Notes under the pieces: generated by a model
Databases searched by the model: none
What the model saw: only the letters and a program-made list of their open reading frames with translations
Told to the model about the DNA's origin: nothing
DNA from: a virus
Lineage: Duplodnaviria > Heunggongvirae > Uroviricota > Caudoviricetes
IMG/VR virus record: IMGVR_UViG_2529293078_000014
Strand: one strand, 5' to 3'
DNA: 6,931 nucleotides
Part shown: piece by piece, positions 1,285 to 1,860 of the stretch
Numbering within the stretch: the first letter of the stretch is position 1
Layout of the letters: every line of letters starts with the position of its first letter
Program-made: the position numbers and the translations under genes

Positions 1285-1470
1285 GGGCGTAGTGGCCCAT
1301 TAAAAATATTGCAAAGACCAACTATTGTTGAACTGGATTAAACCAGTAATTCTCTATTGCTCTTATTGTTACCATCGGATGATTGCCGGGGGTTATTTTA
1401 AGTTCGGGAGGAAAAGGCTCTCCATCAGCAGCCATCATTGAGTATGTGAAATCCGCCGACGCAGTCCCTT

Positions 1471-1860
1471 TCATGATAATTCCGAATTTTTCAAGTAATG
1501 AGAGCAGTTCCGGTAATCCTGTGTCATCTGAATAACTTTCCTCATAGAAAGAAGCGATTGCCGCAGGAGATGACAGTTCTCGCTCTGCAATTTTTTTGTA
1601 GTTTTCCAGAATTCTTTTTTTGAATACTTTTCCTCGACATGAAAACCCATCACCGAGGCAATCCGCTTTGCAGTTTCTTCAGTATTCTGGTTGTTTGTTA
1701 CCGAAACAGAGTACAATCCGGTAAACGCATCGCGCACATTACGAGCCATATTATCAATGTATTTCTTCGTTGCAGATTCTAATTCAACTTCGTTCAGACG
1801 TTGGTGAAGTGCATGTGCTGCAATTTCCTGGATTTCTTTTAGTAAATCTTTAAATTCCAT
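1471..1860 (-). CDS. YdfC-like prophage protein; the annotated frame (129 aa) is probably disrupted or frameshifted at A7 tracts, and the more protein-like C-terminal continuation lies in another frame (1322..1621)
   Basis: ATG at 1860..1858; the first ~82 codons are protein-like (MEFKDLLKEIQEIAAHALHQRLNEVELES...). After two A7 runs (complement of 1615..1621 and 1594..1600) the in-frame tail (NCHLLRQSLLSMRKVIQMTQDYRNCSHYLKNSELS) looks like out-of-frame sequence. The -1 frame stays open for 99 codons with good composition and no usable start codon. Confidence 0.5.
   Translation of the reverse strand: MEFKDLLKEIQEIAAHALHQRLNEVELESATKKYIDNMARNVRDAFTGLYSVSVTNNQNTEETAKRIASVMGFHVEEKYSKKEFWKTTKKLQSENCHLLRQSLLSMRKVIQMTQDYRNCSHYLKNSELS

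Follow-up and report, generated by a model that had tools for sequence, protein, structure and literature searches.

A prophage early-operon gene common in enterohaemorrhagic E. coli is split across two reading frames, very probably by contraction of an A8 run to A7

The stretch of DNA analysed here (6,931 nucleotides, referred to as the window) is the immunity/early region of a lambdoid, Qin/Rac-like prophage, as given by the RefSeq annotation of the identical O157:H7 sequence. The genes and features of this region are the following:

2941..3342, minus strand: cI/DicA-like repressor (RefSeq)
2722..2913, minus strand: RelB antitoxin (RefSeq)
2435..2722, minus strand: RelE/ParE-family toxin (RefSeq)
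between the toxin gene and ydfB, minus strand: DUF1391 ydfA-like gene (RefSeq)
1872..2000, minus strand: ydfB, the upstream gene of the same operon (RefSeq WP_000344963.1, identical sequence)
1471..1860, minus strand: the gene studied here, in RefSeq an ordinary CDS for the hypothetical protein WP_000394511.1
1099..1284, plus strand: convergent ORF, WP_001133046.1, 61 aa
711..762, minus strand: DicF sRNA, downstream in the same operon (Rfam RF00039, 76.9 bits, E 3.3e-16, full length)
after DicF, minus strand: dicB and then a DUF1482 ydfD-like gene (RefSeq)

The operons of K-12 Qin, O139 and ML35 lack the RelB-RelE/ParE pair (2435..2913). DicF lies about 560 nt downstream of the gene studied here, and the convergent ORF stands between this gene and dicF; its product reads MPNKPCPACNALSGF...NCPEH..., with a CxxC...CPEH pattern that resembles a zinc ribbon. 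In the loci that carry intact alleles of the gene the counterpart of this ORF has been annotated with 80 aa, and 20 nt of it are shared with the 3' end of the gene (L009, 3521..3763). The longest homopolymer of the window is elsewhere, an A8 at 5413..5420 (plus strand) that is in frame inside a 400-aa replication-protein-like ORF (4762..5964) and adjoins a Glu/Gln-rich repeat (QEQEQEQEKEQEQ); it is likely to be a hot spot for the same kind of indel as the one described below.

The gene had been called ydfC-like in the first-pass annotation, and this name holds for its position alone, between ydfB and dicF. K-12 YdfC (72 aa, Qin prophage) occupies the same position in the operon, but when it was compared with the gene product by BLASTP no alignment was obtained at E ≤100, and K-12 DNA matches the window only as far as the end of ydfB.

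When the minus strand was read from the ATG at 1860 an ORF of 129 codons was found that ends at TGA 1473..1471, and the -1 frame was found to be open from before both of the A runs in the gene through to TAG 1324..1322. This is the split across two frames that the first-pass annotation had described, and it was also correct that the -1 frame has no ATG, GTG or TTG upstream from which it could be started, the earliest such codon being the ATG at 1474. On the coding strand the two A7 runs are at 1621..1615 and 1597..1591, 17 bases apart, and each reads A_AAA_AAA in the frame of the gene with its first base at the third codon position. Both runs and their register are therefore as reported before and only the position of the second needs correction, from 1594..1600, which reads TACAAAA, to 1591..1597. 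The window has five A/T runs of at least 7, and the pair of A7 runs is in itself unremarkable, being Lys-Lys pairs in a Lys-rich linker. The parts of the gene are the following:

1591..1860, minus strand: N-terminal part, codons 1-90, frame 0 (MEFKDLLKEIQ...EEKYSKKEFWKTTKK), collinear with intact P0001-P0009, L002 and L013
1615..1621, minus strand: first A7 run, TCA AAA AAA GAA = S K K E, in frame in all homologues
1591..1597, minus strand: second A7 run, the frameshift site, A8 in close intact alleles (alignment A2, L013, run-length tally)
1322..1591, minus strand: C-terminal module in the -1 frame (IAERELSSPAAIASFYEE...NYWFNPVQQ, then TAG 1324..1322), stranded by the frameshift
1471..1590, minus strand: out-of-frame tail of the 129-aa product (LQSENCHLLRQSLLSMRKVIQMTQDYRNCSHYLKNSELS and TGA), with no counterpart in any intact homologue
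1373..1375, minus strand: ATG (Met163) codon in the stranded frame, AGG/AAG in intact homologues, coding for Arg or, in a single case, Lys (private-site list)
1471..1474, minus strand: ATGA stop-start overlap (read from the sequence)
peptides of the stranded frame: ELSSPAAIASFYEESYSDDTGLPELLSLLEK and GTASADFTYSMMAADGEPFPPELK; peptides of the tail: LQSENCHLLR and QSLLSMR

The two frames are joined after codon 90, where ...SKKEFWKTTKK is followed by IAERELSS... in the repaired protein, which is 179 aa long and close to the product of about 180 aa predicted earlier. In the annotated product codon 90 is followed instead by 39 out-of-frame residues, LQSEN...SELS. In one O157:H7 strain (L004, NZ_CP017438.1) an A>T change at window position 1539 places a stop inside this tail. 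In RefSeq this is the sole copy flagged as a pseudogene (internal stop); in other records the identical frameshifted gene is a normal CDS.

A homopolymer sequencing or assembly error, in which case the gene would be intact with a true A8, was one of the options raised for this split, and it can now be set aside with near certainty. The 701-nt region was 100% identical in the best 40 complete-genome matches, and the C-terminal segment was present at 99% identity or more in 386 of 5426 complete E. coli genomes, which included O157:H7, O103:H2, O121:H19 and other strains. When 56 matches were sampled evenly, 54 were found to be exactly identical and the other two had single SNPs elsewhere. The 539-nt gene was also found at 100% identity in 8 IMG/VR contigs. 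A 74-nt A8 probe with the flanks of the window had no exact match in any complete genome, and A8 with these flanks was likewise absent from the 8 IMG/VR contigs. Thus, many laboratories have independently arrived at the same A7, which stands in 386 complete genomes and, in addition, in 8 IMG/VR contigs. What speaks for an error is that low-quality drafts can give these runs a wrong length: L011 shows A6, and many neighbouring genes are split in that assembly, and L022 has A6 at the first tract and A7 at the second plus an extra A, whereas L021 from the same genome has A8. The A6 variants of L011 and L022 were considered as real alleles and were rejected because of the fragmented neighbouring genes in L011 and the homopolymer discrepancies between L022 and its duplicate L021 (n=3). 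Such draft miscounts explain the odd proteins P0011 and P0018 but they do not explain the allele in the window.

When databases were searched with the repaired protein, single-frame homologues of 177-186 aa that span both halves were found, which is what the first-pass annotation had suggested looking for. The closest, P0001, is 179 aa long and 94% identical to the repaired window protein, P0002 and P0003 are 179 aa and 180 aa, respectively, and P0004-P0009 are 177-186 aa; the truncated 129-aa form (P0010) was also returned by this search. An intact gene of 186 aa is present in the complete genomes of O139:H1 and related pig strains (WP_000394524.1) and another intact allele is present in E. 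coli A19 (WP_240774732.1). The stranded C-terminal module is 98-99% identical to the C-terminal halves of the intact P0001 and P0002, and the in-frame tail, which had been described earlier as looking like junk, matched nowhere in the intact homologues. Among the intact alleles pN/pS was 0.3-0.6, showing that the C-terminal half is under purifying selection and is therefore real coding sequence. The split between two frames is real and, since intact homologues span both halves, the two pieces were once a single gene.

Where the frame was lost is seen from the DNA alignments, in which the window has one 1-nt gap and this gap is at the second A run. Every close intact allele reads ACT ACA/GCA AAA AAA ATT GCA at this place, that is A8, and the window has A7. 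A8 was read in three Logan assemblies of P0001, in the NCBI and Logan contigs of P0002, in A19 and in L021 from IMG/VR, and in the tally of run lengths L006-L010, L013 and L021 have A8 and the window, L001, L004, L005, L014-L020 and L023 have A7. The more distant intact O139 type (L002) reads AAA ATG GCC AAA CGC ATC, without any run. It had been proposed earlier that coding is genuine up to about codon 82 and that the frames are joined after both A7 runs; homology places the change of frame after codon 90, at the second run. The first A7 (1615..1621) was considered as the frame junction and was ruled out, because SKKEFWK, which spans it, is in frame in every intact homologue, and A19 has TCG AAA AAA there. 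Of the options raised in the first-pass annotation it is therefore the real frameshift mutation that is supported, as a contraction from A8 to A7 relative to all close intact alleles.

The two parts that are separated by the frameshift differ in their distribution. Residues 1-92 matched phrog_1363 (E 2.4e-37) and residues 1-83 matched phrog_2151 (E 3.8e-29); in PHROGs it was only the N-terminal module that was matched, and neither of these families has an assigned function. A profile search showed that many small prophage proteins, of 50-210 aa, begin with a match to its first 55-85 residues. The C-terminal module is limited to this family and to a distant stand-alone protein of 119 aa (P0136) that starts at the same boundary (REFWLKV...). 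The A run is in the linker that joins the two modules and, as a consequence, the frameshift removes the second module cleanly. When the N-terminal, C-terminal and fused proteins were used in Pfam, NCBIfam, PADLOC and PDB sequence searches nothing was found above threshold. No copy of the gene was found in INPHARED, where there was one N-terminal match of 24% coverage, in phage Evi; the tract was not found in a scan of GTDB representative genomes, and in the literature no paper was found for the protein accession. The N-terminal module is predicted, with low confidence, to be helical in an AlphaFold2 model built from nine homologues, which is a poor model (mean pLDDT 50, pTM 0.34). The slot after ydfA/ydfB is held by a modular family (L003, 1519..2157; P0019-P0120). 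Its members have the N-terminal module of about 55-85 aa in common, and at least two unrelated C-terminal modules are found joined to it, the one of the window gene and the one of the Ybl81-type proteins (208-214 aa); in many proteins of 50-100 aa the N-terminal module stands by itself.

The question then is whether the A7 is simply the result of a mutation or whether it is kept because it is used. Programmed -1 frameshifting or transcriptional slippage was the third option raised in the first-pass annotation, and according to it the A7 would be kept for a fixed ratio of the 129-aa and the 179-aa products, made by -1 frameshifting or by insertion of an A. The sequence has features that invite this reading: both A7 runs are in X_XXY_YYZ register, the A_AAA_AAA at 1597..1591 is in the zero frame, and a -1 slip there, or likewise one extra A in the mRNA, gives exactly the ancestral protein (...EFWKTTKKIAER...), so that the -1 product is longer and is homologous to real proteins. 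It has been reported that A_AAA_AAA gives about 25% frameshifting with a strong pseudoknot (PMC4066793), and there is a precedent in Citrobacter rodentium, where transcriptional frameshifting is reported to rescue an interrupted tssM (PMC4256274). However, the RNA downstream of the second run folds no better than shuffled sequences (z -0.48 for 91 nt and +0.21 for 51 nt), and upstream of the heptamer no SD-like element was found, GAAUUCUGGAAAACUAC having GGA but no GGAG or AGGA. The two-frame layout was kept in no diverged homologue: all of these are read in one frame and have A8 or a sequence that is not slippery. The intact A8 alleles share the flanks of the A7 allele, and therefore there has been no adaptation around the shift. 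Diversity within the split allele is essentially absent, and with a clonal allele the split is not conserved over time. The second run is 7 nt, which is shorter than the runs of about 9 nt at which transcriptional slippage is efficient and exploited in bacteria, with 8 nt in a few IS elements (PMC1088944). In reporter assays -1 shifting at A_AAA_AAA was 0.405% without stimulators; with those of IS911 it was 0.82% and with the pseudoknot of IS3 it was 24.8%, over a background of about 0.055% (PMC4066793, Table S3, the columns of which we assigned by inference from the paper's account of its three constructs). Unstimulated shifting of about 0.4% means that only a trace of full-length protein is to be expected; from these values spontaneous slippage is expected to yield well under 1-2% of the products as full-length protein, which would be an unselected by-product. 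In the heptamer screen that was made across E. coli (PMC4066793, Table S4) the gene is likewise missing from the prophage candidates. Programmed recoding thus finds no positive support here, and we regard it as quite improbable. Still a shade less probable is a recoding switch, in which the A7 would be kept since low -1 slippage, of the ribosome or of RNA polymerase, sets a very low, tunable dose of the full-length two-module protein beside abundant N-terminal module in the early operon of prophages of enterohaemorrhagic strains (EHEC), possibly with a 50-aa C-terminal fragment made by reinitiation at the ATGA.

That same overlap enters into another explanation, namely that the truncation or gene fission was adaptive and the N-terminal module alone was favoured, maybe together with a 50-aa C-terminal fragment reinitiated at 1471..1474. 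We consider this unlikely, although several observations point in its direction. The break is exactly at the module boundary, many prophage proteins have the N-terminal module by itself or joined to a different C-terminal module, and in complete genomes the split allele is far commoner than any intact relative (386 versus 26). The frame-0 stop TGA (1473..1471) overlaps an ATG (1474..1472) of the stranded frame, which from the sequence could allow reinitiation of the 50-aa fragment, and a 50-aa ORF has been annotated elsewhere by gene callers (P0122). This ATG, however, is the conserved Met130 codon, which is also present in the intact genes, and the overlap is therefore coincidental. The high frequency of the allele is accounted for by the clonal spread of EHEC prophages, and the 39-residue junk tail has been left untrimmed. 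Against its three closest intact relatives the window allele shows 7 private substitutions, 5 non-synonymous and 2 synonymous, and the replacements are P7L, T17A, R19H, D34Y and R163M. None of P7, T17 and R163 varies among the nine intact homologues of alignment A3 (in A19 residue 163 is K), and P7 and T17 are also kept in those more distant N-module proteins that were read, so that the private replacements at these two residues argue against constraint on the N-terminal module. As a whole the private changes are suggestive of relaxed constraint on the entire gene, but they are too few for a dN/dS statistic on the window branch. All 90 codons of the stranded C-terminal frame are still open, but with an allele so young, clonal and essentially monomorphic this speaks neither for nor against decay.

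Taken together, a real single-base deletion from A8 to A7, which left a decaying prophage gene with no programmed recoding, is very probably the explanation of the two-frame layout. The ancestral gene encoded a two-module protein of 179 aa, and its A8 at what is now 1591..1597, within the sequence for the Lys-rich linker joining the modules, contracted to A7. The most likely cause of the deletion is replication slippage, and the allele would then have spread clonally with the prophage module. Translation would now give the 90-residue N-terminal module followed by the 39 out-of-frame residues up to the stop at 1471, with the C-terminal module left untranslated and the function of the gene presumably lost; a slip of the ribosome or an extra A added by RNA polymerase would restore the full frame in well under 1-2% of cases. 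The gene is an accessory one in the third slot of a dicBF-type early operon (ydfA-like, ydfB, this gene, DicF, dicB, ydfD-like), and the lambdoid prophage to which it belongs is common in enterohaemorrhagic E. coli. Since so many EHEC strains carry the allele, its loss of the second module is at least not harmful. The gene is frameshifted and probably decaying, but 'pseudogene' may be too strong a word, as the truncated 129-aa protein has a complete N-terminal module, which many related small proteins have alone, and may still work.

This is an ordinary kind of event and it opens no new mechanism. What follows from it is a correction of annotation: WP_000394511.1, annotated in hundreds of EHEC genomes, should rather be regarded as the product of a frameshifted gene, with 39 junk residues at its end and, downstream, a homologous module of 90 codons that would go untranslated. 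It also brings into view a modular family, with a common N-terminal module and interchangeable C-terminal modules, in a variable slot between ydfB and dicF, which may be useful to those who study dicBF-type operons or the accessory functions of prophages.

When the gene is compared with known systems, it has in common with the -1 sites of E. coli (dnaX and IS911, IS3 and IS600 of the IS3 family) an A-rich X_XXY_YYZ heptamer in the zero frame and a longer -1 product. Unlike the gene in the window, sites of the dnaX and IS3 type have a downstream hairpin or pseudoknot, often an upstream SD-like element, and a layout conserved in homologues (PMC4066793). For such sites the structure begins about 5-8 nt downstream and the SD-like element lies about 10-14 nt ahead of the heptamer. 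With the 9A/9T slippage genes (Baranov et al. 2005, PMC1088944) and with C. rodentium tssM (PMC4256274) it shares a homopolymer indel and a frame that an extra A in the mRNA would restore, but the runs exploited in the survey of Baranov et al. have 9 nt, with 8 nt in a few IS elements, and the run here has 7 nt. The Ybl81-type proteins of 208-214 aa in Rac-like prophages (phrog_2151) are encoded in the same operon slot and have the same N-terminal module (about 55-85 aa), whereas their C-terminal module is unrelated to that of the window gene. The intact orthologues (P0001, P0002, A19 and the O139 type) are in the same slot after ydfB or DUF1391 and have both modules collinear with those of the window gene; they differ from it in having a single frame and either A8 or no homopolymer.
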